Shown here piece after piece: positions 2,375 through 23,145 of a DNA stretch of 24,000 bases. A model generated the notes under the pieces. The model worked only from the letters and a program-made list of their open reading frames with translations. It had not been told where the DNA came from and searched no databases. This DNA is from an uncultured Candidatus Saccharibacteria bacterium (lineage in GTDB: Bacteria > Patescibacteriota > Saccharimonadia > Saccharimonadales > Saccharimonadaceae). Made by a program: the position numbers and the translations under genes. The number at the start of each line of letters is the position of its first letter. The first letter of the stretch is position 1. The stretch spans positions 16,215 through 40,214 of the forward strand of contig CALMAK010000018.1 of the NCBI GenBank assembly GCA_937859515.1, in the 5' to 3' direction.

Positions 2375-2379
2375 AACGT

Positions 2380-4670: not shown

Positions 4671-4674
4671 GATT

Positions 4675-6014: not shown

Positions 6015-6617
6015 TTACATTATATCCTGTTTGTATAAATCATAAACAATATCAAGAGGTATATCTTTGCTAGGAGCTTCACTTTTATTGATGGCTATTG
6101 TAGGGGTGATAGTGAATTCCCACGAGTCATCCTTTTTCTTCAGAATGAATCGATAAATATCGTTAGGTTTATCGTTTAGATTAATTTTTCCATAAGCCCA
6201 AGCACCCGTCTCGTGGATAGAAAGGCTTTTAACGGTTATATTACCAGTTGCAGAGTACCTCTTTGAAATCATTTCTATTATACCGGCACGCTCTTGCTCC
6301 AGTAACTTTAATCGATAACTCTCGAGATATTTTGGTGTCACAGTTATCTCTTGATTGTCGTTGGTGTGAAAAGATATGATCTCTTTCTGGTAATTTGTAC
6401 CAGCGATAATGTAAAAATACGCTCCTTTTTCCAGGGTTACGTTACTAGAGTTGTCTATTTTGGTTACTTTTTTACCATCTTCGGTTACGATTTCGACGGT
6501 ATATCCAGATCCACGAAGATCAAAACGTACCTCTCTCCGAGAAAGTAGGTAGTCGGCTCCAGCCCAGATAGCGAGTCCGATGGCAATAATACTAATAACT
6601 ATGATTAAGCGCTTCAT
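6015..6617 (-). CDS. Bitopic membrane protein, type B paralogue (TM, PEGA-like domain, W/YRF domain)
   Basis: The N-terminus MKRLIIVISIIAIGLAIWAG is a TM helix. The segment LEKGAYFYIIAGTNYQKEIISF is PEGA-like. The C-terminal AWAYGKINLN...DIYRFILKKKDDSWEF parallels the 3425..4045 product. Its start overlaps the upstream stop in an ATGA (6614-6617). Confidence 0.75.
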   Translation of the reverse strand: MKRLIIVISIIAIGLAIWAGADYLLSRREVRFDLRGSGYTVEIVTEDGKKVTKIDNSSNVTLEKGAYFYIIAGTNYQKEIISFHTNDNQEITVTPKYLESYRLKLLEQERAGIIEMISKRYSATGNITVKSLSIHETGAWAYGKINLNDKPNDIYRFILKKKDDSWEFTITPTIAINKSEAPSKDIPLDIVYDLYKQDIM

Positions 6618-7420: not shown

Positions 7421-8455
7421 CTATTGCGTTATTGAGTGATCGCAACCTCCATCGGGACAGAGTTCGACACCACCAAGCCTCATAAACTCTGCCGGATTAA
7501 CAAATTTCGACCAAGTACATCTTCCCAGGGGTAGTTTGGCAACTTCCGGGTTAGTATTCTCGTCTATGTCAACTTCGAAATGGAGGTGCGCGCCAAATGA
7601 ATATCCCGTGTTACCTACATATCCTAATTGATCACCCGCTTTAACAACTTGACCGGTTGTGACGATAATATATCCGTCATCCATGTGGAGATATCTGGTT
7701 CGATATCCATCGGGATGTTTAACATATACAGAGTTGTTATAGTCACCTGTGACTTCAACAGTACCGCCATGAGCCGCTAATACAGGGGTTGTATATCTTG
7801 CTCCGACTAGGTCATACCCGTTGTGCCAAGGTGTTATGCCTCCGCACGATACACTTCCAACATCTGGACGTGGTCCTCCAAATCCTTCACTTACGCGAGT
7901 ACCATCTGCGATAGGATGGACGAAGGTATCATCTATTTGACCAGCTGAGGTTTCGCCGCCCTCTTCCTCATCTTCGCCATTTATTGATTGAAGTATTTGG
8001 TAGTCAATAAGGAATACGGCGATTGCCTGGATGGCCTTTGGATTTTTTACGCCTTCAACTTTTTCCTCATCATCATCTTCAGCTAGCGCACAGCTGGCTG
8101 TAGTTTCTTCACCGTCATCATTAGTATACGTTTCATTACCCTGAAGGCACCCGCTTCCATTTGTTGTAGAATTACCTTGACCATCCGAGGTTACGCAACC
8201 GCCGGCGTTAAATATGTAGTCACCGGTATCGGGGTTACTACAGGAATTTATAAACTCATACAATAGGTTATCTTTGCGGATGAATCCATTTCCGCTGTAT
8301 CCATCCTCATTATCGCCACTTTTTGGCATAAGTTCTTCAATAGTCGCCCCCTCGGGGATTTCTGGACAATCTTCACCTTCACCACTAGCTGTACTGTCGG
8401 CATTACAAATCCAACCTTCGTCTTGTAGGAGGTTGATTGCCTCAGCTGTTGACAT
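7421..8455 (-). CDS. M23 (LytM-type) metallopeptidase with an acidic, Cys-rich N-terminal region; no signal peptide
   Basis: The M23 motifs HNGYDL (HxxxD) and GNTGYSFGAHLHFEV (HxH) are present. The N-terminal ~190 aa are Asp/Glu/Gly-rich with 8 Cys. There is no hydrophobic N-terminus and no Shine-Dalgarno before the ATG. Confidence 0.85.
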   Translation of the reverse strand: MSTAEAINLLQDEGWICNADSTASGEGEDCPEIPEGATIEELMPKSGDNEDGYSGNGFIRKDNLLYEFINSCSNPDTGDYIFNAGGCVTSDGQGNSTTNGSGCLQGNETYTNDDGEETTASCALAEDDDEEKVEGVKNPKAIQAIAVFLIDYQILQSINGEDEEEGGETSAGQIDDTFVHPIADGTRVSEGFGGPRPDVGSVSCGGITPWHNGYDLVGARYTTPVLAAHGGTVEVTGDYNNSVYVKHPDGYRTRYLHMDDGYIIVTTGQVVKAGDQLGYVGNTGYSFGAHLHFEVDIDENTNPEVAKLPLGRCTWSKFVNPAEFMRLGGVELCPDGGCDHSITQ

Positions 8456-8539: not shown

Positions 8540-10543
8540 TTAATACCCCCCTGCATAACCACAATATTGGCTAGAGAAGTTAACCGCCGCACCAACATTA
8601 GTCGAGAGTGCTGATGGTAATTTTGAGAATGATGAAAAGAGGCCTGTAATACCATATCCCCCACTCGAAAAGGCGGCCATCTGGGCATTGTAGAGAAGAC
8701 TACCCATGAAGGTGTAACGGCTTGATGTATCGAATGGGCTGAGCGAGGCGATATCCATCTCGCGTTGGAAGTTCTCACTTTCTTGTTGCATAGCAGTGAA
8801 ATCACCCAACTGATCAACAGATAGTGTTGGTAAGTGGTGCGCCATACCACCAGATGAGAAGAATGCTGCAGCAGATACGCCCAGGACGTCGCCCAACTCT
8901 TCTCCTTGTGCCTCTGGTATGGCATCATTTTGAGCAAATTGTGTTATCCAATCAATTGCGTAGGTTTCAGCAATTGTTTTAATAAGTTCCGAAACAAGTT
9001 CTGATATTAACCATGAGGCAGCAATTTTAATTAGCCCACCAATAATTGTTGCAGAGGCGGCAACGGTTGTTGCCATATCTACTGCCATGGCAGTATACAT
9101 GGCAGTAGGGCTCATGATGACATTACAGGCTGGCTCCGTAGCCTTTGAAACATCTTGAGCAGTACGAACTACAGGGTTAGACAATAGACCATACCCTGGT
9201 GCGAACTTTGTTGATACTCCTGGTTTTGACTTATTAACCCCCATTGCGGCTAAGAGATACTGTGAATCAAGCGCAGATGTCATATTTCCGCCAGAGTTCT
9301 CTGTTTTATTCGTCAACAGTGTTCCTATGGCGTCTGCATCGTCTGCCGTTATACTATTTTCTTTATCCACGCCTGACGCCTTTGCTTTTGAACCAGGGGA
9401 CATAACGACATCCATGACTATAGGAAGTAGTTGGGCTAACTGAATGGCAGCGACACCAGCAGCGACATACCCCGGTGCTTTAACCGTAATACAGCCCGCG
9501 ACAGCGATGAGATAGCCAACCCCTCCTTTCTTTGCTTTGCCAGTCTGTTTGTTGATTTTATCTGTTATCTTGCCAGCAGTTTTCTCCGCCGTCTCCATTC
9601 CAGGAATTGATGTTTTTAGTTTTTTCTGTATATTACTTAAACGTTCTTTGGCGGTCCCTTTTTTATTGGTACCGTCTGCGAGACCACCATTTCTTTTAAT
9701 ACCAAATTTGTTAAAGAGCTTACCAGTTATATGCTTACCAGTCCATGCCTTAACTCGAAGATTAAATGCGCCGCGATGACCAAGGACCTTGCTGGCTAAT
9801 TTTCTATTATCTTTGTTTGCCAGAAACCCGGTAAGGTCCTTTGCCGCAACTCTTTTTGGACTTTTTCCTTCACCCATGTCGAATTCGTAATGACTTGGAT
9901 TTTTCTGAGGATACCCCGTTCTTTTGCCGTCGTACCTTGTTGAGTCACTTGTGCCACCATCGAAGATAGCTGTGACACCTTTCTTTTTTAGTTGGCGGAG
10001 GGCCTTATTTGATATTTTGCCCATCTTGCATTTAATGTTTTTAGTACTATTTGCACAAACGGCATCGCCTTTTGTCATGTTATTGAATACCTTCATGAAG
10101 CGGCGTTCCATTGCCGTCGACGAAGAATCATTGGATATGCTGAAGTTCTCGGTGAGATTAATTAATAAACTTGCAGGTCCGAAAAATCCAGCCAGAATAC
10201 CACCACCGATTCCAAATATAGATATAAGACCAATGATTCCGCCGCGTTTTTTCGCAAATCCTACCGCCTTTTGTAGCCGCGGCTTGTCAATCGCATTACC
10301 GCCGTTACCGGTATAATTCATGGTATTGGGGTTTTCTTCTGCCCTTTTGGTACCACCGCTTAAGTCACCGGATGTACCGTCTTTTTTGTAGTTTTCACCA
10401 CCAAATTCACGTTCAAATGCGTCACGTTGATCTTGTGCGGCATCGGCAGCGGTGTTCTCGGCATCGTTCAAGTATGCACCATTTCCGGCCTCGACCTTTC
10501 TGTCGATAGCTGATTTTTGATCGTCATCTGTAAGTGTTGGCAT
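8540..10543 (-). CDS. Large membrane-associated protein of unknown function (T4SS-cluster component)
   Basis: 667 aa. The order of regions is an acidic N-terminus, a Gly-rich TM helix (GGIIGLISIFGIGGGILAGFFGPASLLINL), a Lys-rich basic region of about 230 aa, and a C-terminal half of Ala/Gly-rich hydrophobic or amphipathic segments. I recognise no catalytic motif. Confidence 0.7.
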   Translation of the reverse strand: MPTLTDDDQKSAIDRKVEAGNGAYLNDAENTAADAAQDQRDAFEREFGGENYKKDGTSGDLSGGTKRAEENPNTMNYTGNGGNAIDKPRLQKAVGFAKKRGGIIGLISIFGIGGGILAGFFGPASLLINLTENFSISNDSSSTAMERRFMKVFNNMTKGDAVCANSTKNIKCKMGKISNKALRQLKKKGVTAIFDGGTSDSTRYDGKRTGYPQKNPSHYEFDMGEGKSPKRVAAKDLTGFLANKDNRKLASKVLGHRGAFNLRVKAWTGKHITGKLFNKFGIKRNGGLADGTNKKGTAKERLSNIQKKLKTSIPGMETAEKTAGKITDKINKQTGKAKKGGVGYLIAVAGCITVKAPGYVAAGVAAIQLAQLLPIVMDVVMSPGSKAKASGVDKENSITADDADAIGTLLTNKTENSGGNMTSALDSQYLLAAMGVNKSKPGVSTKFAPGYGLLSNPVVRTAQDVSKATEPACNVIMSPTAMYTAMAVDMATTVAASATIIGGLIKIAASWLISELVSELIKTIAETYAIDWITQFAQNDAIPEAQGEELGDVLGVSAAAFFSSGGMAHHLPTLSVDQLGDFTAMQQESENFQREMDIASLSPFDTSSRYTFMGSLLYNAQMAAFSSGGYGITGLFSSFSKLPSALSTNVGAAVNFSSQYCGYAGGY

Positions 10544-10567: not shown

Positions 10568-12412
10568 TTACATTTGCTGACTATATCCACTCGTATCTGT
10601 GGCTGCCGCTTGCGGCTTTGTAGTAATCAGTCCTGTTTCTGTTTGACTGGCAATAATTTGAATATGTACGTGGTTTTGCCCAGCAAAGAATAGTCCTTGT
10701 CCGACTGGGAAGTTGGCGAGGCGCTTTTTCTCTTCTTCGGTTAATTTAAAAACATCAGACAGGACGTCGACGGCACTGGTCGATTGCTTGAGGAGAAGTT
10801 GCATTGAACTGTTGGCAACGATGGCGCGACCCATCTTGCTACCCATAAAGTCTTCAACGTCCTGAGTAATCGTCGTAACACCAAGATAGTATTTACGAGC
10901 ACGCTTGGCGAGAGAGAAAAGAAAGCTGGCACTATCGTCGTACTTCATTAATTGCCAAGCCTCGTCAACGATCAGCATACGCTTTTTCTGGTCGGTACGT
11001 GTAATATTCCAAATGTGACTGAGGACGATATACATTGCTACTGGTCGTAATTCATCCTCAAGGTCGCGAATATTAAACACTACCATGCTGTTATTAATGT
11101 CGATATTGCTTTGCTGACTGAAGATACCAGCGAAGGTTCCGGTGGTGTATTTACGCAGACGCTGCGCTAATTGTGGGCCAGTCCCACCCATATGAAGCAA
11201 TGTGTCGTATAGGTCGGAAATAGTTGGTGGCTGTGAACCGTGTGTCAGGGGATCGCTGGTGATACCAACACGAGCATAGGTATCAATTAGGCCTTGGTCA
11301 AGGTCGGCTTCTTCTGCTGGTGTCAGTGCGGACATTGCTTGTCCATTAGCGGCTACTTGAGTACCGCCTAGCATGAGGCGAAAGAGACCATGCAATGTAA
11401 CAAGGTTTGCACGCAAGGCATCATCTGCCTCGTCGCTATCAATCACGCGTGGCAAATCAAATGGATTAATACGTGTGTCGCTGCTGAGGCTGAGGCGAAT
11501 ATAACTACCACCTACTGCATCGGACAGTTTTTGATACTCGTTTTCTGGGTCAATGATGAGGACTTCTGCACCAACCATCATACTGCGGAGGGCCTCCAAC
11601 TTGACCGTAAATGACTTACCGGCACCAGACTTTGCAAATACCACCATATTGGCATTTTCCAGCGTGAATCGATCAAAAATAACGAGGCCGTTATTGTGCA
11701 TATTGATTCCGTACAGAATACCACTACTATCAGTAAGGTCAGCACTAGTGAACGGGAATGAGGTACTGATTGCACCGGTGTTCATATTGCGGCGGATCTG
11801 TAGCTGGTCAGATAGTTGTGGTACGGTACTGTTGAGGCCTTGCTCTTGTTGGCTACTGGCAACCTTACTGAAGACCATTTGTTGGCCAAAAATCGTCTCG
11901 ATCTTGTTTTGAACAAAGGTCAATTCTTCCAAACTGTCGGCGTACAAAGTAAAGTACAGCCCGTAACGGAAGAACCGTTCGGCGCCAACCTGAATCTGGT
12001 CACGTAATTCCTCGGCGTCTTGAATTGCCGCCTCGAGGCCCGGGTCACGAGTACGCCCCTTCTCGTTGTTGATTGATTGTGTTGCCTCAAGCTGCGTCAC
12101 CTTCTTTTTGAGGTTATTAAGTACTGTTTGGCTGTCGACGGGATAAATATACATGCTAATGTCGAGCACCTCGTCGATGTTAATGAGGCTCGATAGCCAT
12201 CCGGTGTAGATTTCGCGTGGGTAGCCATAGACATAAATCGTCCGACCGTATTTTGTGCCCAGGCGGAAGTGGTCGCTGTGAATCTCGAGACTACTTGGTG
12301 CGATAAAGTCGCGCATTGTCGAGACACCTTTAAGGAACGCCTGCTCAACTTCGGCTTGTTCACGCGCAGCTTGTGCTGCAGCAATGTCAACTGCGTCTCT
12401 TTTTTTAGCCAT
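10568..12412 (-). CDS. virB4: VirB4/TrbE-family T4SS ATPase
   Basis: Walker A is VVFAKSGAGKSFTVK and Walker B is RMLIVDEAWQLM. The N-domain has the Gram-positive VirB4 look (GRTIYVYGYPREIYTGWLSSL...LDISMYIYPVD). I prefer the ATG at 12410-12412 (MAKKRDAV...) because AGGAG (revcomp of 12419-12423) lies 6 nt upstream. The ORF-track start at 12439 remains possible. Confidence 0.9.
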   Translation of the reverse strand: MAKKRDAVDIAAAQAAREQAEVEQAFLKGVSTMRDFIAPSSLEIHSDHFRLGTKYGRTIYVYGYPREIYTGWLSSLINIDEVLDISMYIYPVDSQTVLNNLKKKVTQLEATQSINNEKGRTRDPGLEAAIQDAEELRDQIQVGAERFFRYGLYFTLYADSLEELTFVQNKIETIFGQQMVFSKVASSQQEQGLNSTVPQLSDQLQIRRNMNTGAISTSFPFTSADLTDSSGILYGINMHNNGLVIFDRFTLENANMVVFAKSGAGKSFTVKLEALRSMMVGAEVLIIDPENEYQKLSDAVGGSYIRLSLSSDTRINPFDLPRVIDSDEADDALRANLVTLHGLFRLMLGGTQVAANGQAMSALTPAEEADLDQGLIDTYARVGITSDPLTHGSQPPTISDLYDTLLHMGGTGPQLAQRLRKYTTGTFAGIFSQQSNIDINNSMVVFNIRDLEDELRPVAMYIVLSHIWNITRTDQKKRMLIVDEAWQLMKYDDSASFLFSLAKRARKYYLGVTTITQDVEDFMGSKMGRAIVANSSMQLLLKQSTSAVDVLSDVFKLTEEEKKRLANFPVGQGLFFAGQNHVHIQIIASQTETGLITTKPQAAATDTSGYSQQM

Positions 12413-13268
12413 TCTGTACTCCTGGTGCTTGGCCTTCACCCTTGCGTGTATAAATTGATGTCATTTGTTCGAAATTACGAATTGGCTCGCGGATTGCTGT
12501 ATCTGGGTTGTAGAAGTTGTATAGCAACTCACTGATCTCTGTTGTATTGAGGCGGATACTGTGGACGCCCATCTGAAAGAGACCTGCGATTACGCTTTCG
12601 ACACGGTTATTGATTTCAGTCTTTGCCTTTTCGTAAGCGTCGCTGTTGATCGTTGTAACTGAAGCAGGGCTGGTGAATAGTTTCCCGAAGAATCCTTTGG
12701 CCTGCCCCTTGAGGTTGGCGGCATCACCTTCTGGGAAGTAAGGTATGACGATATAGAACGATTTATCCATAATATTTGCCTCTTGTGCCAAGGCATCGAT
12801 AAAGTTTATGTAGTCATCCATAAGGACAGTTAGTAGCATGTTATCTTCGTTACGCCTGAGATCAACAAGCTTATCGATGTATGGCCCGATATCGACACGC
12901 TGTGACCGCACGAGAATTTGAATTGGGTGGTGTAATGAATTAAGGAAGTTCTGATAGGCATATTCAACGCCCTCCCGTTCGCGACTGCTCATAAGATCAA
13001 AGTTAATTGACTGGCACGCAACGATTGATCGGAAAGTTCCATCGGTCATGATTGCCATACTGTCGCGAATTTCAGCGAATTGAAGACTGTTTTGGGTTGA
13101 GTTAGGATTTTGTGGCTGTGCCTTTTGTGGTTGTTGGGGTACACCTGGTTGCCCTGGTATTGGCTGTCCTGGAGCAGCCTGAAAAGGCGCTCCATTTGGG
13201 GCGGCTGGCATTGGTCCTGGTGTTTGATTAGTTGGTGGCATAGCGCCGGTGTTCCCCACTCCTATCAA
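12405..13268 (-). CDS. Hypothetical protein: Pro/Gln-rich N-terminus plus a domain resembling a stand-alone VirB4 N-terminal domain
   Basis: 287 aa. The start is uncertain: the ORF-track start is a TTG at 13266-13268, and the next ATG ends at 13241. After PGQPIPGQPGVPQQPQKAQPQNP comes TDGTFRSIVACQSINFDLMSSREREGVEYAYQNFLNSLHHPIQILVRSQRVDIGPYI. That pattern recalls conjugative VirB4/TraC N-domains, but no Walker motifs are present. Confidence 0.6.
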   Translation of the reverse strand: MIGVGNTGAMPPTNQTPGPMPAAPNGAPFQAAPGQPIPGQPGVPQQPQKAQPQNPNSTQNSLQFAEIRDSMAIMTDGTFRSIVACQSINFDLMSSREREGVEYAYQNFLNSLHHPIQILVRSQRVDIGPYIDKLVDLRRNEDNMLLTVLMDDYINFIDALAQEANIMDKSFYIVIPYFPEGDAANLKGQAKGFFGKLFTSPASVTTINSDAYEKAKTEINNRVESVIAGLFQMGVHSIRLNTTEISELLYNFYNPDTAIREPIRNFEQMTSIYTRKGEGQAPGVQNG

Positions 13269-13277: not shown

Positions 13278-14405
13278 TTATCGCAATGAGATGACAACTT
13301 CATCTTCATCGAGAGATGCTGACTTTTCGCTGATGCGATGAGCTTCCCTGGCAATTGTCTCGACCGATAAATCAGTATTGCTTGCAAGCTTTATTATATC
13401 AGGTGAGACGGCATTAGTGCTAGTGGTTGTTTGTTCTTCGGGCGCCGGTGTCTGGGCGACTATTGGCGTGTCCATTTGCGGCTCTGGTGCGGGCATAGCG
13501 GGTTGAGGTTGAGTGACCTGCGCCTGAGCTGATAGTGGCTGTATGACAGTCTGGTTCATGCTGGATGGGTACGGATTGAACTGAGGGGCAGCTGCTGTAT
13601 CAAAGGGGTTTGGCGCGGGTGCAACAACGGTTTGAGTTTGAGGTTGCACTACAGCTGGCTGTGGAGCCGGTGTATATACGGGTTGTGGCGCTGTAGCGGG
13701 TGTAGTCATTTGAGGTTGCGCAGGTGCGGGCGTTGGTGTTGGCTGGGCGAGGACAGTATATGGATCCGGTGGTGTATATACGGGTTGTGGTGCAGGCACA
13801 GCTGGTGCTGCGGCCGCTGATTGGAATCGGTTAAGCATTTCTTGGTGGCGACGTTGGTCGGCCTGAGAAATCATATGATTGAGATTTTGTGCCACAGTAC
13901 CATCGTTGTCCAGAAGGTCCTGGGTTTGTTGTGCCTCGTTGAATATATCAGCGTTTAGCGAGTTACCTGATGGATCATGGATGCCACGCACCGACCATCC
14001 GTGGGTATCGGAAAGGTTCGAAAGATAGCGCAGGCGCTGTTCGGCCTCACTGCTGGATATATTTTTTGTTCGTTGTGGCTCGACGTTACGCGGAGCAGCA
14101 ATCTGTATCAGGGTCTCAATACCATCAGGATCCCACATGCGATTACGAGGCTTGAGGTAAAACGACAGAAGAGCTGCCATATATATTTCCATTGGTTGAT
14201 CCTTACGCAGTGGCAGCGCTAGTGCACCAAAAAAGACCACAAACGGCAGTGCAATGACGGCAAGTGGCGCGAATATCTTGAATAAAAGGAAGCCTACTCC
14301 CAGGGCAACCGCAACAATCATCAGATAGACGAACTGCCTAAAGCTGAATGGTCCAAGGAGTTTATCGTCGGCTTCGACGTCTTGAGGCACTTTATAACTG
14401 GACAT
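13278..14405 (-). CDS. PrgI-family / VirB3-like T4SS membrane protein with a long Pro/Gln/Thr-rich C-terminal extension
   Basis: The N-terminus YKVPQDVEADDKLLGPFSFRQFVYLMIVAVALGVGFLLF...LAVIALPFVVFFGALALPL matches the PrgI-family layout (conserved VP.D....DK..G.....Q motif followed by two TM helices). It lies directly upstream of the VirB4 genes, as prgI does with prgJ. The tail carries the repeated PQPVYTP. Confidence 0.75.
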   Translation of the reverse strand: MSSYKVPQDVEADDKLLGPFSFRQFVYLMIVAVALGVGFLLFKIFAPLAVIALPFVVFFGALALPLRKDQPMEIYMAALLSFYLKPRNRMWDPDGIETLIQIAAPRNVEPQRTKNISSSEAEQRLRYLSNLSDTHGWSVRGIHDPSGNSLNADIFNEAQQTQDLLDNDGTVAQNLNHMISQADQRRHQEMLNRFQSAAAAPAVPAPQPVYTPPDPYTVLAQPTPTPAPAQPQMTTPATAPQPVYTPAPQPAVVQPQTQTVVAPAPNPFDTAAAPQFNPYPSSMNQTVIQPLSAQAQVTQPQPAMPAPEPQMDTPIVAQTPAPEEQTTTSTNAVSPDIIKLASNTDLSVETIAREAHRISEKSASLDEDEVVISLR

Positions 14406-14434: not shown

Positions 14435-16759
14435 TTATGGGCGTGATGATGGTGGCGGTCCGCCATTTCGTCGACCGGCTTCACCTCGGGCAACCTTTAA
14501 GACTTCTTGGTAGTGGGCGTCGTTTTCGGCACCAGGTGTTGTTTGTGCTTGCTGGATCAGCTCACCCAGCTGAGCATCAGAGAGATTACCTACGCCAGCC
14601 TTGAGAGACTTTTTAGTTGCAGAACCTTCGTGACCTGATGCATGATGTATTTGTTGCATGACTTCCTGGCCGCTGGCAAAGTTTGAAGTAGTGGTTACTT
14701 CACCAGTTGAGGGGTTAATGTTGGTAGTTGGTGCATTTTCGTATGAGATTTGTGGTGTACCACCACCAGATGCGCCACCTCCACCTCCGCTGCTTGGAGC
14801 TGGAGTGTCAGGAGATGGGCTGCTGCTGCCTGTGCCACCACCTGATAGTGGGTTGCCGCTAAGATCTGTACCGGCAAGCCCTGCCATTGTTTCGCGATCT
14901 CCAACACTCATGAGGTTTCTGGCAGACTCGGTGCCCATGACAGACTGAGCCATAGATTGATTGATAAGTCCATTTGACATGAGGTTACCAAGATTCTTTT
15001 GCCCCGCAAGCTCGGATGCACCAAGTCGACTATACGTCTCCGGGTCTCCCTGTATCTTTGTGAAGTCCGGCTGTATTATATTACCGTTCTCGTCTTTTCC
15101 TGGAGATGCAGTGGAGAAGCTATCGATAGCAGCACTCTTCCCTTTCAGTCCAAGTCCAAGGGCATCACTAGCAAGACTTTGTCTCATTGAGCTGTTATCG
15201 GTAATTGCCCCTGAGCTGGCACCATATACTCTCTCGAGCTCCTTAATACCAGCACCGCCAGCACCTGCGAGGTATCGCTGCATGGCCCGTGCTTTAGTGG
15301 AATCACCACTCTTAATGGCTTTTTTCATTTCCGTACTCGCGCCCTCAATATCTGTAGCACCATTCATATTCTTAAATCGTGTCAGTTCTTGTGATACGTC
15401 CATCTCATCCTGCTTGTCAACGGCGGCCATTGCTGCGGCCGAACCTTTGTCAAGGCCAAGCGCCTTGCCAAACCGTGAATTATCGACTGCCCGCCCAATG
15501 CGACTATTGCCGCGTCTAGTCGCCCTGCGGAGGGCCATCCTGTTCTTAATTCCACGCTGTGCCTCGCCTAGCCTTGAGGTGTCGCGTACCTTGCTTCCAA
15601 TTCTGCCATTTGCCTTCGAGCTCCAGCCAGACAGCTTATTTCCGATCGATCCTGCAGCACTCATTGAATTTTTCAAGAGACTTGGGACAAGGAATAATGG
15701 AACTGTTGCAACACCCATTGCGATAACTTGCATAAGCAGGTTTGGGTCACCAGTAGGATTACCGCTCGCATCCATTGGTGTTGCGGTTTGGTTAATCACT
15801 TCTGCGACTAATGCCGACGCACCAAAAACGACAGCAATTATTGGAAATACCATTAACAAGGCAAGGAACATTTTATACCACTTTTTGAACCACTGTTCGG
15901 TGTTTGGCAGCAGGAACGCGACAAACGCAAGCGGTGAAATAATGGTCAGGGTGGTGATAAGGGCGATACGAGCCACAAGGATGAGTGCAATGAGGAGGAG
16001 CGCGAGAACGGCCGCCAGTATTACCGGGCCAGATATTGAGAGTGCTAATGTGATGCCTCCAGCTAGTAACGCGGCAATTAATGTAGCCCAACCGAGGCCT
16101 GTCAAGGCAGTATTCACACCAGTCGGGTCATCTATAGGTCTGCTTAGTAGAACGTCATTACCGAGTGTGTCGAATAGTGTTTTTAGGCTGTAGCCTAAAA
16201 TATTACTAATATCGACGGCAATTTGACATATAATCAGGGACATATTCACCAAGATGGCTGCAATAATAAGGCGTGGAAGGAGCTTCTTGACTCCGTAATT
16301 GCTAATACCCGTACTTGTTAATTGAGAGAAAATGATTACCAAGAAAGCGATGACGAACACAACGTTTGCGAGCGTTCGCATAACACCCCAGGCACTCTCT
16401 ACGCTGGCTGAGTTTACATATTCAACCTTTATCGATAAAAAGCTGTCGGCAAGAAAATTAAAGGCCATATCCGCAACTCCACCAAGGAAGTCCATGACGG
16501 GACAGACTACCCAACCGATGCCTTCGATACCACATGAGGATTTAGCGGGTTCAACACACTTACTGGCGTCACCGTCCCATTCGTATTCTGCATCCTCACA
16601 CGCCGACTGATTATCGTAATCCTCCGGGGCAGCATAAGACGGTTGAGATATTACTGTTGCTGTTACCAATGCCCCCACAAGAACGAGTGACGCAAAAAAC
16701 ACAGAGAATAAGCGCGAGCTTTTCTGTTTCTGTTTATTCTTTGGGCTTTGCCGTAACAT
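14435..16759 (-). CDS. Extended VirB6/TrbL-like polytopic membrane protein with a ~400-aa C-terminal tail
   Basis: I prefer the start at M17 (ATG 16757-16759, MLRQSPKNKQKQKSS + TM), because the ORF-track start at 16807 lies inside a 16-bp hairpin. A Cys-rich ectodomain follows (CEDAEYEWDGDASKCVEPAKSSCGIEGIGWVVCPVMDF). There are about 6 TM helices, including ISPLAFVAFLLPNTEQWFKKW (TrbL/VirB6-like). The Gly/Ser/Pro-rich tail includes SGGGTGSSSPSPDTPAPSSGGGGGASGGG. Confidence 0.75.
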   Translation of the reverse strand: MLRQSPKNKQKQKSSRLFSVFFASLVLVGALVTATVISQPSYAAPEDYDNQSACEDAEYEWDGDASKCVEPAKSSCGIEGIGWVVCPVMDFLGGVADMAFNFLADSFLSIKVEYVNSASVESAWGVMRTLANVVFVIAFLVIIFSQLTSTGISNYGVKKLLPRLIIAAILVNMSLIICQIAVDISNILGYSLKTLFDTLGNDVLLSRPIDDPTGVNTALTGLGWATLIAALLAGGITLALSISGPVILAAVLALLLIALILVARIALITTLTIISPLAFVAFLLPNTEQWFKKWYKMFLALLMVFPIIAVVFGASALVAEVINQTATPMDASGNPTGDPNLLMQVIAMGVATVPLFLVPSLLKNSMSAAGSIGNKLSGWSSKANGRIGSKVRDTSRLGEAQRGIKNRMALRRATRRGNSRIGRAVDNSRFGKALGLDKGSAAAMAAVDKQDEMDVSQELTRFKNMNGATDIEGASTEMKKAIKSGDSTKARAMQRYLAGAGGAGIKELERVYGASSGAITDNSSMRQSLASDALGLGLKGKSAAIDSFSTASPGKDENGNIIQPDFTKIQGDPETYSRLGASELAGQKNLGNLMSNGLINQSMAQSVMGTESARNLMSVGDRETMAGLAGTDLSGNPLSGGGTGSSSPSPDTPAPSSGGGGGASGGGTPQISYENAPTTNINPSTGEVTTTSNFASGQEVMQQIHHASGHEGSATKKSLKAGVGNLSDAQLGELIQQAQTTPGAENDAHYQEVLKVARGEAGRRNGGPPPSSRP

Positions 16760-16790
16760 GCTACGTTTAATTAAAGCACAAGCGGCGTAA

Positions 16791-16824
16791 TTTAAGAATA
16801 GACCCAACTGGGTCTATTCTTAAA
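16791..16824. repeat. Perfect 16-bp inverted repeat (hairpin) between the lipoprotein gene and the VirB6-like gene
   Basis: tttaagaatagaccca (16791-16806) and tgggtctattcttaaa (16809-16824) are exact reverse complements separated by 2 nt. They lie in the 96-nt gap between the stop at 16856 and the ATG at 16759. Confidence 0.85.
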
Positions 16825-16855: not shown

Positions 16856-17707
16856 TTATTCTTCGGTTTCGGGGGTGTAGTTTTTGCTTCTATAGAGCCC
16901 TGAACCAGAATCCACCGCAGTCCATAGTTGTTGCGCTGTTACAGTGTCGCCATCAGGCGAAACGAGGGTGTAGTTCGCAAATACACTGCCATTTTGTTCG
17001 TGAACGTATTTGTTAATTGATTGCAGTGTCATATTTTGTGGCTCAATACTACCGTTACGAATGCCCTCAATGATTGAAGTTAATTCCTGTCGTGAATCAC
17101 TGTTTGGCGCCGTAACACACTCAGTGAGATTATAGGAGACCTCGAGGTTTCGCGGATCAGTGTCATCGGCGGCAAGTGCGAGGATCATATTTTGGCGCCC
17201 AACCATAGAATTAACGAACTCCTCGCCATTAGTAGCAAGATTCTCACCGTTACTATCAACTTCCCAGCCATTTTCTACATTTATCTCTAAGCCATTCGTC
17301 TCAAAAAAATTGTAGCAGATAGAACGCTTTGAGCCTGGGAATCTGAGGTCGTAAGTATCCTCCTCTAGGCTGCTTCCGCCGGGAATAGTAAAACTCGTTA
17401 TATCATCCCAGTCAGCAAAGGCATCATAGTCAACCTCAAGCCCAGAAGGCACACCTACAAACTCGCCAGCCGCTGGGGTGGTTGGTGTAGTATCAGGGCT
17501 GTTGGGTTGTTCTGTAGGGTCTTGTGATGCAGATATTGAAGGCTGTTCAGTCGGTGGCTGTTCCTGTGCACCGGTATTAGAGCATGCAACTAATGCGACT
17601 GCAGTTAATGCTGCAATAACCGGCACGCCAGCGCTGCGCAGTAATCGCTCGCGTAAGGTTGAGTCGTTGTCGGTTCGTGGACTTTTGCTACCATGTTCAG
17701 ATGCCAT
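16856..17707 (-). CDS. Putative lipoprotein; first gene of the T4SS-like operon
   Basis: The signal peptide carries a lipobox (VIAALTAVALVAC|SNT). A Pro/Thr/Gln-rich linker precedes an acidic globular domain. A strong SD (AAGGAG) lies upstream of the ATG at 17705-17707. Confidence 0.75.
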   Translation of the reverse strand: MASEHGSKSPRTDNDSTLRERLLRSAGVPVIAALTAVALVACSNTGAQEQPPTEQPSISASQDPTEQPNSPDTTPTTPAAGEFVGVPSGLEVDYDAFADWDDITSFTIPGGSSLEEDTYDLRFPGSKRSICYNFFETNGLEINVENGWEVDSNGENLATNGEEFVNSMVGRQNMILALAADDTDPRNLEVSYNLTECVTAPNSDSRQELTSIIEGIRNGSIEPQNMTLQSINKYVHEQNGSVFANYTLVSPDGDTVTAQQLWTAVDSGSGLYRSKNYTPETEE

Positions 17708-17827: not shown

Positions 17828-18235
17828 ATGAATAAAAAACACATATTATATATAACAATAACGACATTAACACTTGGTCTTGCGACTCTTTTGACGCCAA
17901 TTGCCCCCACTGCCGCGGCGGCTGATTTAGAGTGTGGCGTTTTGCCTTCTTCTCTCTGTAATGCTGCTACAAAGGGCGACAAAGATAAAATTGAGGATAC
18001 GGGCGTTTGGAAATTACTGAAACTGGTCGTAAACATCATGACTGCAGGTGCGGGTATTCTAGCCATCGCTGGCATTATATATGGATCGGTGATGTATACG
18101 ACCGCAGGCGGCAATCAGGAGCAAGTTAAGAAAGCCCGAGGTATCCTAACGAATGTGGTGATTGGTGTTATTGCGTTTGCTGCCATGTGGGCGCTACTGC
18201 AATGGCTATTGCCAGGAGGGGTATTAAATAAATGA
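17828..18235 (+). CDS. VirB2/TrbC-like T4SS pilin paralogue 1
   Basis: The ORF-track start at 17789 is a TTG. The ATG at 17828 gives MNKKHILYITITTLTLGLATLLTPIAPTAAAA|D, a signal peptide. The mature part has a Cys pair, then two hydrophobic helices joined by YGSVMYTTAGGNQEQVKKAR, the layout shared with the other paralogues. Confidence 0.75.
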   Translation: MNKKHILYITITTLTLGLATLLTPIAPTAAAADLECGVLPSSLCNAATKGDKDKIEDTGVWKLLKLVVNIMTAGAGILAIAGIIYGSVMYTTAGGNQEQVKKARGILTNVVIGVIAFAAMWALLQWLLPGGVLNK

Positions 18236-18921
18236 GAAAAATCTTACTTACCGTCGGGATAGTGTTTGCGGGATTATTTGGTGGAATGGTAGGTATGGTT
18301 GCTCTTCCGTCGGGTCAAGCCGCCGCCGCCTGTGATACTGCAGTTTTAGGTATTAACCCATGGTATAAGGGGATGACTGAAGGAACGGGTTCTGACTGTA
18401 AGATAAAAAGTCCTCCAAAGACTGAGCAAGGATTAAAGGAATATATCTGGAAGATTGTCCTCAATGTTGTTGACATTGTATTAAGGGTCATTGCATATCT
18501 CGCGGTGATATTTATCATATATGGAGGATTCTTATATATTACGAGTGCTGGCAACTCTGATGCGACAGCACGAGCCTTAAAGTCGATCATCAATGCATCT
18601 GTTGGCTTTGCAATTGCCCTTAGCGCGATCGCTGTAAAGAATTTCATATGGGACAGTTTGGTTGCACCTGGGTCGAACGTCTTTGGTATACCAGATAAAA
18701 ATGCGGGTCAAATACTAATTGATGCATTAAATATGTCCTACTTTATTGCTGGTGTCGTTGCGGTGATTATGGTAATTCTTGGTGGATTAAATTACGTAAC
18801 ATCATCTGGTGACTCAGGTAAGACAGCGAAGGCAAAAAATACAATCCTATATGCGGTGATTGGTATTGTAGTGATTATCTTTGCATTTGCGATTACGACA
18901 TTTATTAATTCGAAATTATAA
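18232..18921 (+). CDS. Tandem double-domain VirB2/TrbC-like pilin (paralogue 2)
   Basis: The start overlaps the upstream stop in an ATGA (18232-18235). The signal peptide ends in QAAAA|C. Two successive copies of the helix-loop-helix module are present: IIYGGFLYITSAGNSDATARALKSI... and VILGGLNYVTSSGDSGKTAKAKNTILYAVIGIVVIIFAFA. Confidence 0.75.
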   Translation: MRKILLTVGIVFAGLFGGMVGMVALPSGQAAAACDTAVLGINPWYKGMTEGTGSDCKIKSPPKTEQGLKEYIWKIVLNVVDIVLRVIAYLAVIFIIYGGFLYITSAGNSDATARALKSIINASVGFAIALSAIAVKNFIWDSLVAPGSNVFGIPDKNAGQILIDALNMSYFIAGVVAVIMVILGGLNYVTSSGDSGKTAKAKNTILYAVIGIVVIIFAFAITTFINSKL

Positions 18922-18932
18922 GGAGATATATA

Positions 18933-19331
18933 ATGAAGAAACTAAAACAATTATTACTCCCTGCCCTGTTGGTGGTAGGTATCGCCGCATCTGTGGCGGT
19001 GCCAGTAGTGCCAGTAAGTGCGGCAGATCTTGACCCTTGTACGCTCAATCCTGGAATGTGTACCGGCAAGAAGACTGATGTAAATGACATCTTTAAGACG
19101 ATTGTAAACGTCTTGTTGTTTATTGTTGGTGTAATTGCGGTGATTATGATTATTGTGTCGGGTGTACGTTATACGGCATCGGCAGGTAATGCAAACAGCG
19201 TTGCCGCAGCAAAAAACACGCTATTATATTCGATTATCGGCCTCGTAGTGGCGATTTTTGCCTATGCAATTGTCAATTACATTGTGTTTAAGGCAAGTGG
19301 TGGCACATCAGGAGTGAATCCTGGGGCGTAA
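18933..19331 (+). CDS. VirB2/TrbC-like T4SS pilin paralogue 3
   Basis: A strong SD (AAGGAG) lies 8 nt upstream. The signal peptide ends in VPVSA|AD. A Cys pair is present (CTLNPGMC), and the core is IIVSGVRYTASAGNANSVAAAKNTLLYSIIGLVVAIFAYAIVN. Confidence 0.8.
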   Translation: MKKLKQLLLPALLVVGIAASVAVPVVPVSAADLDPCTLNPGMCTGKKTDVNDIFKTIVNVLLFIVGVIAVIMIIVSGVRYTASAGNANSVAAAKNTLLYSIIGLVVAIFAYAIVNYIVFKASGGTSGVNPGA

Positions 19332-19402
19332 TCTGTTCACAAGCGTAATAGAATGTGATATAACATAAGGTATAGTTCAATAATATGAAAGGAAAGAAAT
19401 AA

Positions 19403-19816
19403 ATGAAGAAAACAATTCGAACTGCACTTGCGGGGTTGTTGATGGTTCCAGTCCTTGCACTAGGTTTGACTGTTACAGCAGGAACCCTCGATGCCGCCGC
19501 AGGAACCCTCGATGCCGCTGCACAGATCAACTTGAACGCAGCAAAGCCAAATGGCGTACCAACAAGTGTTGGTGGAACAAACGGTATTTTTAATACCGTT
19601 GTAAACGTCCTATTGTTCATCATCGGTGCTGTGTCTGTCGTGATGCTTATTTACGGAGGTATTCGTTATACAACCTCTGGTGGTAATGCAAACAGCGTTA
19701 CTGCGGCTAAGAACACGATTATGTATGCGATTATCGGTCTTGTTATCGCTATCTTTGCCTACGCACTTGTCAACTGGGTTGTTGGTGCAGCAATGAACGG
19801 AAACACTACTACTTAG
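19403..19816 (+). CDS. VirB2/TrbC-like T4SS pilin paralogue 4
   Basis: It has a signal peptide and the core LIYGGIRYTTSGGNANSVTAAKNTIMYAIIGLVIAIFAYALVN. It shares an identical 18-nt block (ggtaatgcaaacagcgtt) with paralogue 3. Confidence 0.8.
   Translation: MKKTIRTALAGLLMVPVLALGLTVTAGTLDAAAGTLDAAAQINLNAAKPNGVPTSVGGTNGIFNTVVNVLLFIIGAVSVVMLIYGGIRYTTSGGNANSVTAAKNTIMYAIIGLVIAIFAYALVNWVVGAAMNGNTTT
19478..19519 (+). repeat. Tandem 21-bp duplication inside pilin paralogue 4 (encodes AGTLDAA twice)
   Basis: gcaggaaccctcgatgccgcc (19478-19498) is followed directly by gcaggaaccctcgatgccgct (19499-19519). The two units match at 20 of 21 positions and are in frame. Confidence 0.9.
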
Positions 19817-19836: not shown

Positions 19837-19872
19837 AATACTCCCCTTCATTACGAAGGGGAGTATTTTATT
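19837..19872 (+). terminator. Rho-independent terminator of the pilin operon
   Basis: aatactcccctt (19837-19848) pairs with aaggggagtatt (19856-19867). A T-rich run follows, 21 nt after the pilin-4 stop. Confidence 0.75.
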
Positions 19873-19932: not shown

Positions 19933-20403
19933 TTATAGTACTTGAATCTTCTTTGCTTGCTCTTGCTGTACCTTCGGGAAGGTAATTGAAAGAACGCCGT
20001 CCTTCAGTGAAGCCTGAGCCTCATCTTCCTTTACTGGGACTGGCAAGGCAACGGTGCGGCTGAACTCACCCCAGTAGCATTCTTGGATGTGCCAGTTGGT
20101 TGCGTCAGTGTCGTCACCACTTGACAGGGTACCACTGACGGTTAGGATGCCGTCGCTGATGCTAACATCAAGATCCTCTTTGTTGACGCCGGCAGTACGT
20201 GCCTTAACAACAAGAGTTCCCTCTGTCTCGTATACATCAACAGCGAGCTGTCCAGGAAACTCGTCGTCAGCTTCTTCCCATGCATCATCAGCGGGTGCTG
20301 GTGCTACGGTTGGTTGCTCATCGGTCGTTGCAAAGTCGTCATTTAGAAACGCTTGTGCAAGCTCATCTTCGATCAAGAGATCGTCATTTTGTTTACGGGC
20401 CAT
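19933..20403 (-). CDS. Small heat-shock protein, Hsp20/alpha-crystallin family
   Basis: The alpha-crystallin domain pattern is present: LAVDVYETEGTLVVKARTAGVNKEDLDVSISDGILTVSG...GEFSRTVALPVPV...ASLKDGVLSITFPK. I prefer the ATG at 20401-20403 because GGAGGA lies 5 nt upstream. The ORF-track start at 20415 is a GTG that partly overlaps that SD. Confidence 0.88.
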   Translation of the reverse strand: MARKQNDDLLIEDELAQAFLNDDFATTDEQPTVAPAPADDAWEEADDEFPGQLAVDVYETEGTLVVKARTAGVNKEDLDVSISDGILTVSGTLSSGDDTDATNWHIQECYWGEFSRTVALPVPVKEDEAQASLKDGVLSITFPKVQQEQAKKIQVL

Positions 20404-20510
20404 GATATCCTCCACTTTTCTCTAGGCTCTATTGACAAATAGTCTCTATCAGTATAACCGAGTATTACGCTATAATCAACCTTAGAAAGGCGCGAAACGT
20501 AAAAATCACA

Positions 20511-21176
20511 ATGATAGATAAAGTGCTGTCGTTTTTTGCCCCACACCACTGTTATTTTTGTGGACAAGTGGGGGTGCCAATATGCAAAAATTGTAAATAT
20601 AACATCATTAGTGACCCATTTGAAAGATGTATTGGCTGCGGAGGTGTGGCGCTGCCCAGTGGCTTGTGCGGCAGATGTACCGTTCCTTATGGGCGTGGAT
20701 GGGTAGTGGATGGCTATAAGGGTCCGATGGGTGATGCAATCAAGGGGATGAAGATTGTATCGATGCGCCAAGTGGCGACAGTGCTGGGCGAAATATTAGC
20801 AAGTAGGTTACCGCGGCTTCCCTCTCATGTGGTGATCGTGCCTGTGCCAACCCTGCGGTCGCATATCCGACAAAGAGGGTTTGATCATACGAGAATAATT
20901 GCCACGACCGCCTCACGTCACCTGAAGATACCTGTTGAGTTCCCCCTGCGACGCATTAGTAAAACAATGCAGCGAGGAGCAACTGGGGTGCAGCGCTATC
21001 AGCAAGCGAAGGAGGCGTTTCGTGTAGAGGGTGTCATTAACCCCGATACAATTTATCTGCTGGTTGATGATGTAGTGACGACCGGTGCAACGATTCGCGA
21101 GGCGACCAAGCGGCTGCGTGAGGCGGGCGCCAAAGAGGTTTGGGTGGCGGTCCTAGCGCGCGAGACCCTCGACTAA
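20511..21176 (+). CDS. comF: ComF-family protein (zinc-ribbon + phosphoribosyltransferase fold; ComFC-like)
   Basis: The N-terminus has four Cys pairs (CYFCG...CKNC...CIGCG...CGRC). The C-terminal part carries the PRTase PRPP-binding motif IYLLVDDVVTTGATIREA. Confidence 0.85.
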   Translation: MIDKVLSFFAPHHCYFCGQVGVPICKNCKYNIISDPFERCIGCGGVALPSGLCGRCTVPYGRGWVVDGYKGPMGDAIKGMKIVSMRQVATVLGEILASRLPRLPSHVVIVPVPTLRSHIRQRGFDHTRIIATTASRHLKIPVEFPLRRISKTMQRGATGVQRYQQAKEAFRVEGVINPDTIYLLVDDVVTTGATIREATKRLREAGAKEVWVAVLARETLD

Positions 21177-21213
21177 ACAAGCTATATCTGATAGAATACA
21201 TCAGTAACAATCT

Positions 21214-21338
<125 letters not shown>

Positions 21339-21394
21339 GTTCAGGGGTTTGGAGCGATATCCCTCCCCCCCGATTATCCTGTACACTATACCTA

Positions 21395-22747
21395 ATGCGT
21401 CATTTACGAAACTTTATTGCAACTCACTCTCGCCTGCTGCTATTCATCGGTATCTTCACGATGTTCTTCTTGTGGTCATATATGACACTTGATCCTGATT
21501 TTGGTTGGCATTTACGCTCGGGACAATATTTTATTGAACATGGAATCCCGAGCTATGATATATTCACCTATACCGCCGGGGCGTTTCATTGGGTAAACCA
21601 TGAGTGGCTGAGTGATGTCGTTGTTGCGCTCGTATACGGGGTGGGCTCATTCGAGCTGCTTGCGCTCCTTTATGCGGCTTTGTGGACGTCGGCGTTTGCA
21701 ATCTTAGGTCGGGGCGTTCATGCGGCCTTTTTGGTATCAGGAGCTGTCGCAGTATTGCCATTTGCGGGGGTCCGAGCCCTTACGTGGTCAGTGTTGGGTC
21801 TTGCGCTCCTACATCTTATTATTCGCCAAAGAAACAAAAAGTGGCGACTGGTAATTCCCTTCTTATTTTTGGTATGGGCAAATCTCCATGGCAGCTTTTT
21901 GATTGGAATCGCCTATGGTGGCTGGCAGGTGTTACGCGAAAAATCGTGGCGACTGTTGGTTATTGGTGTGGTGTCGCTGGCGGCTACCTTTATAAACCCT
22001 TATGGCATAGAGATATATACCGAAGTATTTAGAACCATGTTTGATAGTGATCTGCATGCCACAATTATAGAGTGGGCACGGTTTGCGCTGCCGATTAGTG
22101 CAATACCATATACCCTGGTGTGGTTGGGGCTAACCGTGTATCGGAATCGCTGCGACTGGAAGCGATATGTGCAGTTTGAGACCCTCTTGTTTGTTATGGC
22201 GGTGACAAGTATGCGCATGACGCCACTGTTTGTCCTGATGTCACTGCGTGGTTTACAACAGACAGTAAGGGATATCAGTGATGATACACCGAAGAAGTAT
22301 CGATCAAAGCAAGTACAGGCAGCCACTATGGCTGGGGTTATCCTTGTATGCGTTTCTTTGTTGGCACCTGTTGCTGAGAGTGCATCGGGAAATTCGTTAT
22401 CCATCACCTACCCCGAGCGTGCAGTGCAATACCTGACAGAACGTCCATGTAATGGCAATTTGTTCAATAGTTATAATTTTGGTGGATATCTTATCTGGCA
22501 ACTTCCCAACCACAAAGTATATATCGACGGTCGTATGCCAAGTTGGGAGCATGGGGACGGTACCTATATGAAAGATTATTTGCGCATACTAGATGATGAA
22601 TCGTATCGAACTGTACAGTTTAGCCAATATGACATCGGCTGTGTGCTTGTTGAGAACACGGCAATTATTCAAGTGCAACTAAAAGACCAGGGATGGCGCA
22701 CGGTTGTTGATGATGGATACTCGAGCTTGTTGATGCGAGGTAACTAG
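21395..22747 (+). CDS. Polytopic integral membrane protein; possibly a GT-C-type glycosyltransferase or polymerase-like protein (function uncertain)
   Basis: 450 aa with about 10 or more hydrophobic helices. An early loop carries an acidic motif (TLDPDFGWHLRSGQYF), and a soluble domain of about 110 aa lies at the C-terminus. The assignment rests on topology only. Confidence 0.55.
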   Translation: MRHLRNFIATHSRLLLFIGIFTMFFLWSYMTLDPDFGWHLRSGQYFIEHGIPSYDIFTYTAGAFHWVNHEWLSDVVVALVYGVGSFELLALLYAALWTSAFAILGRGVHAAFLVSGAVAVLPFAGVRALTWSVLGLALLHLIIRQRNKKWRLVIPFLFLVWANLHGSFLIGIAYGGWQVLREKSWRLLVIGVVSLAATFINPYGIEIYTEVFRTMFDSDLHATIIEWARFALPISAIPYTLVWLGLTVYRNRCDWKRYVQFETLLFVMAVTSMRMTPLFVLMSLRGLQQTVRDISDDTPKKYRSKQVQAATMAGVILVCVSLLAPVAESASGNSLSITYPERAVQYLTERPCNGNLFNSYNFGGYLIWQLPNHKVYIDGRMPSWEHGDGTYMKDYLRILDDESYRTVQFSQYDIGCVLVENTAIIQVQLKDQGWRTVVDDGYSSLLMRGN

Positions 22748-23145
22748 ACGTTGGTGCCGCCTGCTGTTCCGCCAGTTAGTGAACCGATGACGAAGTTGAC
22801 GATTGCATAAGCAAAGATGGCGATAATAAGACCAACAATTGCGTAAAGGATGGTGTTTTTAGCTGCAGTAACAGCGGCTGCGTTACCACCAGAGATAATG
22901 TAACGCAGGCCACCCCAGATCAGCATAATGACGCTGAGGAAACCGATAATAAATAGCATAGAGTTGACGATTGTTGTCAGTGCGCCGCCGTCTCCGAGAA
23001 GCGTACTGGGCACATCGCTGCCGCGTGCTGCATCAACACCGCCACGGACAGAACCATCAAATGCACTGGCAATAACAGGAGTAAACAGAACAGCACCAAC
23101 CATAAGGGCTGAAGCGGTGAGGGCAAGAAGTAATTTGGTTGTCAT
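22744..23145 (-). CDS. VirB2/TrbC-like T4SS pilin paralogue 5 (orphan copy)
   Basis: The signal peptide is MTTKLLLALTASALMVGAVLFTPVIASA|F. The core LIWGGLRYIISGGNAAAVTAAKNTILYAIVGLIIAIFAYAIVN is nearly identical at protein level to paralogues 3 and 4. AGGAG lies upstream. Confidence 0.8.
   Translation of the reverse strand: MTTKLLLALTASALMVGAVLFTPVIASAFDGSVRGGVDAARGSDVPSTLLGDGGALTTIVNSMLFIIGFLSVIMLIWGGLRYIISGGNAAAVTAAKNTILYAIVGLIIAIFAYAIVNFVIGSLTGGTAGGTNV

Follow-up and report, generated by a model that had tools for sequence, protein, structure and literature searches.

Arrays of genes for VirB2-like pilins of the type IV secretion system (T4SS) have been reported from Saccharibacteria and other Patescibacteria. 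The available text of a preprint by McLean et al. (2018; 10.1101/258137) reports that TM7x and other Saccharibacteria encode an array of 4-6 VirB2-related proteins with signal peptides. In the cultured Southlakia epibionticum ML1, the array comprises SEML1_0014-0019 plus 0024, and Wang et al. (2023, Cell; PMC10633639) showed it to be essential. According to the accessible parts of Quinonero-Coronel et al. (2025; PMC12102498), Patescibacteria contain 441 VirB2 arrays of 2-11 genes, often close to dnaA; arrays of divergent pilin genes near virB4 are especially common in Saccharimonadia, and low within-array identity is typical. Here, we analyzed the pilin array in a 24,000-nt stretch of DNA (the window) from an uncultured Saccharibacteria bacterium, contig CALMAK010000018.1. 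The open reading frame (ORF) listing and hydropathy reveal five pilin genes, P1 to P5, with six helix-loop-helix modules, two of which (A and B) are joined in P2. All five genes belong to the PF18895/VirB2-like pilin family and are positional counterparts of the ML1 pilins. We favor the view that these paralogs are fixed, non-redundant subunits of one assembly and not interchangeable variants.

Pilin genes of the window and their counterparts in S. epibionticum ML1

The pilin genes and the parts of P2 are as follows (aa, amino acids; a slash marks a putative cleavage site).

17828-18235, plus strand: P1, a divergent single-module pilin with an AAA/AD-type site, then a short Cys36-Cys44 ecto-segment, then the module
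18232-18921, plus strand: P2, a fused two-module pilin (229-aa ORF) with a signal peptide, an ecto-segment and modules A and B
P2 ecto-segment, Cys34...W44...Cys56: conserved, located after the signal peptide
P2 module A, about aa 65-144: helices at aa 65-104 and 109-144
P2 linker, aa 145-157: carries a GIP motif
P2 module B, about aa 158-228: helices at aa 158-190 and 195-228
18933-19331, plus strand: P3, a canonical single-module pilin with signal peptide VSA/AD and a Cys36-Cys43 loop
19403-19816, plus strand: P4, a canonical single-module pilin without Cys, the final plus-strand gene of the array
22744-23145, minus strand: P5, a separate single-module pilin without Cys, outside 17828-19816

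An earlier note on this DNA, made from its letters alone, had placed all five genes and six modules within 17828-19816. The counts are correct for the window, but that region holds four genes with five modules, and the third peptide offered as an example (MLIWGGLRY...) belongs to P5, some 3 kb away on the other strand. A hidden Markov model (HMM) of the module, built from the window, matched exactly six modules and no others.

Profile searches place all five proteins in one family. Each scores above the gathering cut-off of 26.6 bits for PF18895 (T4SS_pilin): P1 30.2, P2 61.8 over two stretches, P3 45.7, P4 44.4 and P5 36.8 bits, with E-values from 4.7e-7 to 6.4e-17 (P2 6.4e-17, P3 7e-12, P4 1.8e-11, P5 4e-9). 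For PF04956 (TrbC/VirB2; cut-off 27.9 bits), P3 lies above the cut-off with 28.5 bits and P4 below it with 18.5 bits, while the same search of the window proteins gave no match for P1, P2 or P5. NF045849, the Mbov_0395 pilin-like conjugal transfer protein of Mycoplasma integrative and conjugative elements (ICEs), matches all five, although only P2 exceeds its cut-off (47.6 vs 40 bits), through the summing of two modules, and the other four fall below. The array is divergent from and adjoins monoderm-type T4SS genes, with VirB4, PrgI and VirB6-like genes within 7 kb on the opposite strand.

As read from the sequence, a basic N-terminus precedes a hydrophobic stretch and an AxA-type site in each of the five proteins, and one or more hydrophobic helix pairs follow. 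The putative cleavage sites are AAA/AD (P1), AAA/AC (P2), VSA/AD (P3), VTA/GT (P4) and ASA/FD (P5). After the signal peptide, hydropathy indicates one helix pair in P1, P3, P4 and P5 and two in P2. AlphaFold2 modeled P2 from its homolog alignment with four long helices forming two hairpins (mean pLDDT 80.8), and P3 with a single hairpin (pLDDT 73) that corresponds to aa 50-82 and 87-121, followed by a C-terminal tail rich in Gly/Ser/Thr. A predicted topology of cleaved signal peptide plus hairpin fits the five proteins. The pilin interpretation of the earlier note is therefore supported by the profiles, by the T4SS cluster around the genes and by this predicted topology; the two-module nature of P2 is borne out by its two PF18895 stretches and its two modeled hairpins.

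Pairwise identity among the six modules is 23-68%, with P3, P4 and P5 mutually 57-68% identical. The consensus core motif proposed earlier is recognizable but looser than described, since only six columns (I, Y, G, A, G, A) are invariant and exceptions occur: GS in P1 and SG in P3 replace GG, and module A has R-A-L for (A/K)-A-(K/R). Between signal peptide and core, Cys pairs are present in P1 (36/44), P2 (34/56) and P3 (36/43) and absent from P4 and P5, as had been noted. Contrary to the earlier claim, these segments are not all unrelated: those of P1 and P3 both start with ADL-x-(x)-C-x6-7-C. The 18-nt block singled out as identical in P3 (19185-19202) and P4 (19682-19699) is real; its sequence, GGTAATGCAAACAGCGTT, lies in frame and encodes GNANSV. 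It is not beyond chance, however: the two genes are 71% identical over 204 nt, and a run of at least 18 nt arises in 8-11% of shuffles (p ~0.08-0.11). P5 and P4 share 71% nucleotide identity over 166 nt.

The stop of P1 and the start of P2 overlap (ATGA), AGGAG-like ribosome-binding sites are found at P2-P5, and a terminator-like hairpin follows P4 at 19844-19861. The best promoter candidate of its region, a sigma-70-like match (11/12, extended TG), lies just upstream of P5 at 23212-23184 on the minus strand and suggests that P5 may be expressed independently of the array. P4 contains a perfect-but-one 21-nt tandem duplication (19478-19519), which encodes AGTLDAA twice directly after the signal peptide.

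In ML1, the supplementary table of Wang et al. (2023) lists six plus-strand PF18895 genes (0014-0019), followed by Hsp20 on the minus strand (0020), a 675-nt gene (0021), tRNA-Ser (0022), a 1392-nt gene (0023) and a minus-strand pilin (0024). The window resembles ML1 in the protein family (PF18895 with or without PF04956), in the divergent position of the array by lipoprotein, VirB6, PrgI, TrsD and VirB4 genes near dnaA, and gene for gene in the downstream block from Hsp20 through the minus-strand pilin. In contrast, all six array genes of ML1 have one module each, and 0015 (185 aa) and 0016 (103 aa) are separate genes with a 4-nt overlap and PF18895 at aa 115-180 and aa 38-99, respectively. 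In the window, a single 229-aa ORF takes the place of these two genes, and the canonical pilins number one fewer than in ML1. Synteny, gene lengths and Pfam positions thus identify the window pilins as positional counterparts of SEML1_0014-0019 plus 0024, with P5 corresponding to 0024. Transposon sequencing (Tn-seq) in ML1 found 0014-0019 to be growth-defective or essential and 0024 to be non-essential (PMC10633639). The array itself is already published and adds no new kind.

Conservation of the paralogs and the fused A-B gene

Selection was assessed by comparison with orthologs on L081, a 7-kb metagenomic contig of a close relative with the same gene order. The ratio of nonsynonymous to synonymous substitution rates (dN/dS) was 0.017 for P1, 0.036 for P2, 0.031 for P3 and 0.040 for P4, and it was 0.037 for the P2 ecto-segment. 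The conserved P2 linker sequence, APGSNVFGIPDKNAG, is identical in 16/16 residues despite a proportion of synonymous differences (pS) of 0.60. Pilins are 89-96% identical to their orthologs at the protein level (P4 96%), while the figures for the VirB6-like protein, the lipoprotein and the ComF-like protein are 59%, 70% and 77%. Low ortholog dN/dS together with high identity indicates that the paralogs are old and individually constrained and are not varying rapidly. The duplication in P4 is also present in its L081 ortholog and is therefore not recent. Within the window, synonymous sites of the paralogs are saturated (pS 0.64-0.89), and paralog dN/dS is usable only for P3/P4 and P4/P5 (~0.13-0.16). 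The earlier proposal of purifying selection on several functional pilins consequently holds on the strength of the ortholog values (0.017-0.040) only. Such strong purifying selection is consistent with a need for these pilins in epibiotic growth, which is known only for ML1.

Full-length homologs of P2 form ~59 protein clusters of 220-360 aa, down to 33% identity; conservation across these clusters extends to Cys34, Trp44, Cys56 and the cores of both modules. All of the closest genome loci come from Saccharibacteria/Saccharimonadales metagenome-assembled genomes (MAGs); the best P2 identity among them is 67%, and the best metagenomic protein reaches 90%. With the module HMM, we scanned 80 species-level Saccharibacteria loci, the best 80 of 327 GTDB hits. 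A stop-free two-module ORF occupies the P2 position in 63/80 loci, and separate A and B genes are found in the other 17. The split A gene encodes ~140 aa with a signal peptide, the Cys segment and the module; the product of the split B gene (~98 aa) combines a short leader, in many cases hydrophobic, with a G-(I/V)-P motif and the module. A Shine-Dalgarno sequence just past the A stop serves the B gene in several split loci, so these are real separate genes. The hydrophobic leader of several split B proteins is missing from the fused P2 linker. Throughout the scanned loci, module A is constant in type and position, followed in nearly all by module B, and a minus-strand pilin lies 1.3-5 kb downstream in most related loci. 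A stop-free 335-aa ORF in a Ca. Nanosyncoccus MAG (JAZNJY010000026; L039:3549-4556) combines three modules, namely A, B and the next canonical pilin, so that the fusion has been extended by one further gene in that lineage.

A single ORF that is broken by a nonsense codon keeps its frame, while independently arranged genes need not share one. Of the 17 split loci, 14 have A and B in one frame, compared with 66/232 (28%) other adjacent pilin pairs (Fisher p = 1.5e-5). The split genes are often separated as stop-NNN-ATG, for example in L010:9998-10723, L011:9899-10699 and L055:10010-10720. In a neighbor-joining, midpoint-rooted VirB4 tree of 54 sequences, split loci are interspersed among fused ones at three or more separate positions. 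The shared frame suggests that many split forms arose by fission of a fused gene, or at least that the two forms are states one stop codon apart.

Fusion of pilin modules appears to extend well beyond this locus. The six-module profile of the window was searched against 1.84 billion representative proteins with E-values up to 0.001 and retrieved 74,287 relatives. Two or more matched stretches were present in 149 of the best 150 of these, although a few short two-stretch proteins are probably single modules split by alignment. The most stretches among the best 150 were 17, in a protein of 1775 aa (P0175); other long examples, all among P0121-P0267, have 1147 aa (P0156), 1039 aa (P0211), 820 aa (P0122) and 552 aa (P0121). 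Pfam finds 3, 4, 6, 8 and 11 PF18895 stretches in multi-module relatives, and P0156 matches PF04956 with E = 1.2e-42. To judge by their sequences, these proteins look like genuine head-to-tail concatemers of 3 to ~17 PF18895 modules behind one signal peptide. Three of them are annotated at NCBI: PIT98131.1 of Ca. Andersenbacteria, MDP3997021.1, and OYT27652.1 of a Ca. Altiarchaeales archaeon. A literature search found no paper that discusses multi-module PF18895 pilins. Since multi-module pilins are frequent among the strongest matches of the family, the P2 fusion is less surprising than it first appeared. The earlier note did not know of this arrangement in classical VirB2/TrbC pilins; it is indeed unusual among the proteobacterial ones, but it is common within PF18895.

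A broader proposal is that head-to-tail concatenation is a general feature of PF18895, seen in the A-B fusion, in the three-module ORF and in the proteins of 4 to ~17 modules from other Patescibacteria and an Altiarchaeales archaeon. T4SSs of this kind would then be built from fixed sets of neighbors, and the fused A-B gene would be the older form from which ML1-type strains split. We put this forward tentatively and consider it rather unlikely. If true, it would describe a T4SS of ordered neighbors, fixed covalently or genetically, in place of one repeated subunit, and hence a distinct mode of building a T4SS filament or conduit.

Proposed assembly of the pilins and alternative explanations

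The best explanation of these data, to which we assign a probability of roughly 0.7, is that the pilins, as counterparts of the ML1 array, are Sec-exported hairpin proteins that form one hetero-oligomeric pilus or short conduit in which A and B are fused as a 1:1 pair. Each pilin would leave the cytoplasm through Sec, and signal peptidase I would remove its leader at the AxA-type site. By the positive-inside rule, the two ends of the resulting membrane hairpin would then face outwards, and its basic G-(N/D)-x5-AAK loop would face the cytoplasm. Hairpins with both termini outside are known for VirB2, TraA and TrbC. Because a module of this topology starts and ends outside, head-to-tail joining would leave the topology unchanged, and since helix 2 of A would export the linker, B would need no leader of its own. 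The VirB4/VirB6/PrgI machine may recruit the pilins into a single pilus or short conduit directed towards the host bacterium. Fusion of A and B would fix a 1:1 pair of neighbors and, by the Rosetta-stone argument, suggests that the two are direct 1:1 neighbors in the structure. The divergent, Cys-bearing P1 and A could serve as minor, initiating or tip-like subunits, with the similar canonical B, P3, P4 and P5 as bulk subunits; this division into minor and major subunits we infer only.

Several observations weigh against this explanation. Cleavage and topology were deduced from the sequence without a dedicated predictor. A Foldseek search of the P2 and P3 models against the PDB gave no significant match, the best being generic hairpins with E >0.4 and >3, and the six-module profile retrieved no solved pilin by sequence. 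The direction between fused and split forms rests on the frame bias and the midpoint-rooted neighbor-joining tree of 54 sequences. A T4SS pilus has yet to be seen in any Patescibacterium, and reviews call a pilus a possibility only (PMC12857230). Finally, single-gene Tn-seq essentiality within an operon may reflect polar effects.

The paralogs could instead be interchangeable pilin variants, of which the cell would use a single one at any time, to suit different host strains or to vary the exposed surface. Such a role has been proposed for the VirB2 paralog arrays of Bartonella and Anaplasma, and the accessible parts of PMC12102498 suggest it for the 441 Patescibacterial arrays with reference to their low within-array identity. 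The strong differences among the ecto-segments between signal peptide and core would suit it, as would the similarity of P3, P4 and P5 (57-68%), which is enough for partial redundancy, and the non-essential ML1 counterpart of P5. Against it, orthologs are 89-96% identical with dN/dS of 0.02-0.04, even the P2 ecto-segment stands at 0.037, and conservation between species is far above that between paralogs. Module A also keeps its type and position in all scanned loci with B after it in nearly all, two of the supposed alternatives are covalently fused in most genomes, and all six array genes of ML1 are essential or growth-defective. We consider variant pilins quite improbable. The host- or condition-specific variants that the earlier note listed as an option are likewise disfavored. 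As far as their available text goes, the papers on Patescibacteria and TM7x arrays favor a host-range or variation reading, which the ortholog conservation found here does not support. Taken together, the conservation of each paralog, the constant A followed by B and the essentiality in ML1 lead us to prefer a heteromeric assembly with fixed roles over host variants.

It is also conceivable that these VirB2 homologs form no extracellular pilus and make up a membrane ring or tube of hairpins in the translocation channel, or that the host membrane receives them. Pili are normally absent from Gram-positive-type T4SSs (PMC10633639 and the available text of PMC12102498), relatives with 4 to ~17 hairpins per polypeptide are reminiscent, by analogy, of rotor-ring c-subunits, and the structure hits were ATP-synthase c subunits and other membrane hairpins, with an ECOD hit in the table of Wang et al. 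(2023). In the TM7x literature, the array has been treated as putative effectors. Against this stands the homology to the pilus-forming families PF04956 and PF18895; moreover, with the termini outside, a concatemer would suit a helical pilus lattice equally well. A function without a pilus seems unlikely to us, and neither a pilus nor a membrane-proximal tube has been seen. As for unrelated proteins with two transmembrane segments (holins, bacteriocins or immunity proteins, for example) that are located by a T4SS only by coincidence, a check against these possibilities produced a single marginal PHROG holin match (phrog_6384, P3, E = 0.005, 17 bits). By comparison, PF18895 E-values extend to 6e-17 with all five proteins above a curated cut-off, no phage, lysis or bacteriocin genes are found in the neighborhood within the window, and linkage to the T4SS is kept in 80 loci and ML1. 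The chance of such an origin is negligible; these profile and context results effectively refute it, and we reject it, so that the pilin interpretation stands.

The assembly of fixed subunits that we prefer concerns a system of some biological weight: only a few functions have been shown to be essential for Saccharibacteria to live as epibionts, and the T4SS with its pilin array belongs to them. The fused/split polymorphism predicts adjacency of A and B, which constrains structural modeling as well as genetics in S. epibionticum.

Neighboring genes and comparison with other pilin systems

The remaining annotated features of the window are listed below.

119-3420: dnaA, dnaN and recF
4675-6009 and 7421-8455, minus strand: Phage_lysozyme2-domain protein and M23 peptidase
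10568-12439, minus strand: VirB4 ATPase (NF045971 conju_CD1110, 378 bits vs cut-off 325; also of NF045975 type)
12405-13268, minus strand: TrsD-like protein (NF041427)
13278-14405, minus strand: PrgI/VirB3-like protein (PF12666 PrgI)
14435-16807, minus strand: VirB6/TrbL-like protein (PF04610 TrbL)
16856-17707, minus strand: lipobox protein, between the VirB6-like gene and the pilin array
19933-20415, minus strand: Hsp20 (PF00011)
20511-21176, plus strand: phosphoribosyltransferase/ComF-like protein, 666 nt (PF00156)
21214-21303, plus strand: tRNA-Ser
21395-22747, plus strand: 450-aa membrane protein gene, 1353 nt

The order of the T4SS core genes is identical in L081, a second related locus (L082) and ML1. 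The 287-aa TrsD-like ORF overlaps the VirB4 start by 35 nt and has weak matches to TrsD and to the N-terminal region of VirB4-family models; its presence as a separate ORF agrees with the report of TrsD as the commonest T4SS component in Patescibacteria. The lipobox protein (283 aa, lipobox LVAC, with a Pro/Thr/Gln-rich linker) has no family match, and its position is kept in L081 and L082. The Phage_lysozyme2 and M23 proteins, both in the T4SS-side block, are candidates for a cell-wall-opening (VirB1-like) function. The ORFs at 3425-4700, 6015-7417 and 8540-10543 have no Pfam match. The spacer block at 19933-22747 is not part of the pilin system; it is a synteny marker that ties P5 to SEML1_0024.

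What this locus adds to the searched literature is modest: the fused/split polymorphism with its frame signature, the evidence against variant pilins, and the long concatemers. In the searched text of the reports on Patescibacteria and TM7x arrays (PMC12102498, 10.1101/258137), genes are counted, and multi-module ORFs and a fused/split polymorphism are not mentioned.

The window pilins share with VirB2 of the Ti plasmid, TrbC of RP4 and TraA of F a leader, two hydrophobic helices and a short basic loop, and they are likewise encoded together with VirB4 and VirB6. Classical conjugative pilins have a single module and belong to diderm systems; some are cyclised or acetylated, and VirB5 proteins form the tip. 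In the window, by contrast, the system is of monoderm type, and its several pilins differ from one another, some of them with disulfide ecto-segments and two of them fused. Rotary-ATPase c/K subunits provide a precedent for an oligomerising membrane hairpin that is tandemly duplicated in one polypeptide with its topology unchanged. This can only be an analogy, as family and function are unrelated and the window gives no sign of ring formation.

A different kind of relative is the Mycoplasma ICE protein Mbov_0395/MMCAP2_0565 (NF045849). Both this protein and the VirB4 type found here belong to monoderm conjugation systems; unlike P2, the Mycoplasma protein has a single 80-residue module, and it is encoded in a mobile element. 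The NF045849 matches hint that pilin-like proteins may occur in monoderm MPF-FATA-type systems, which is relevant to the published idea that the pilins of Patescibacteria were co-opted from diderm T4SSs.

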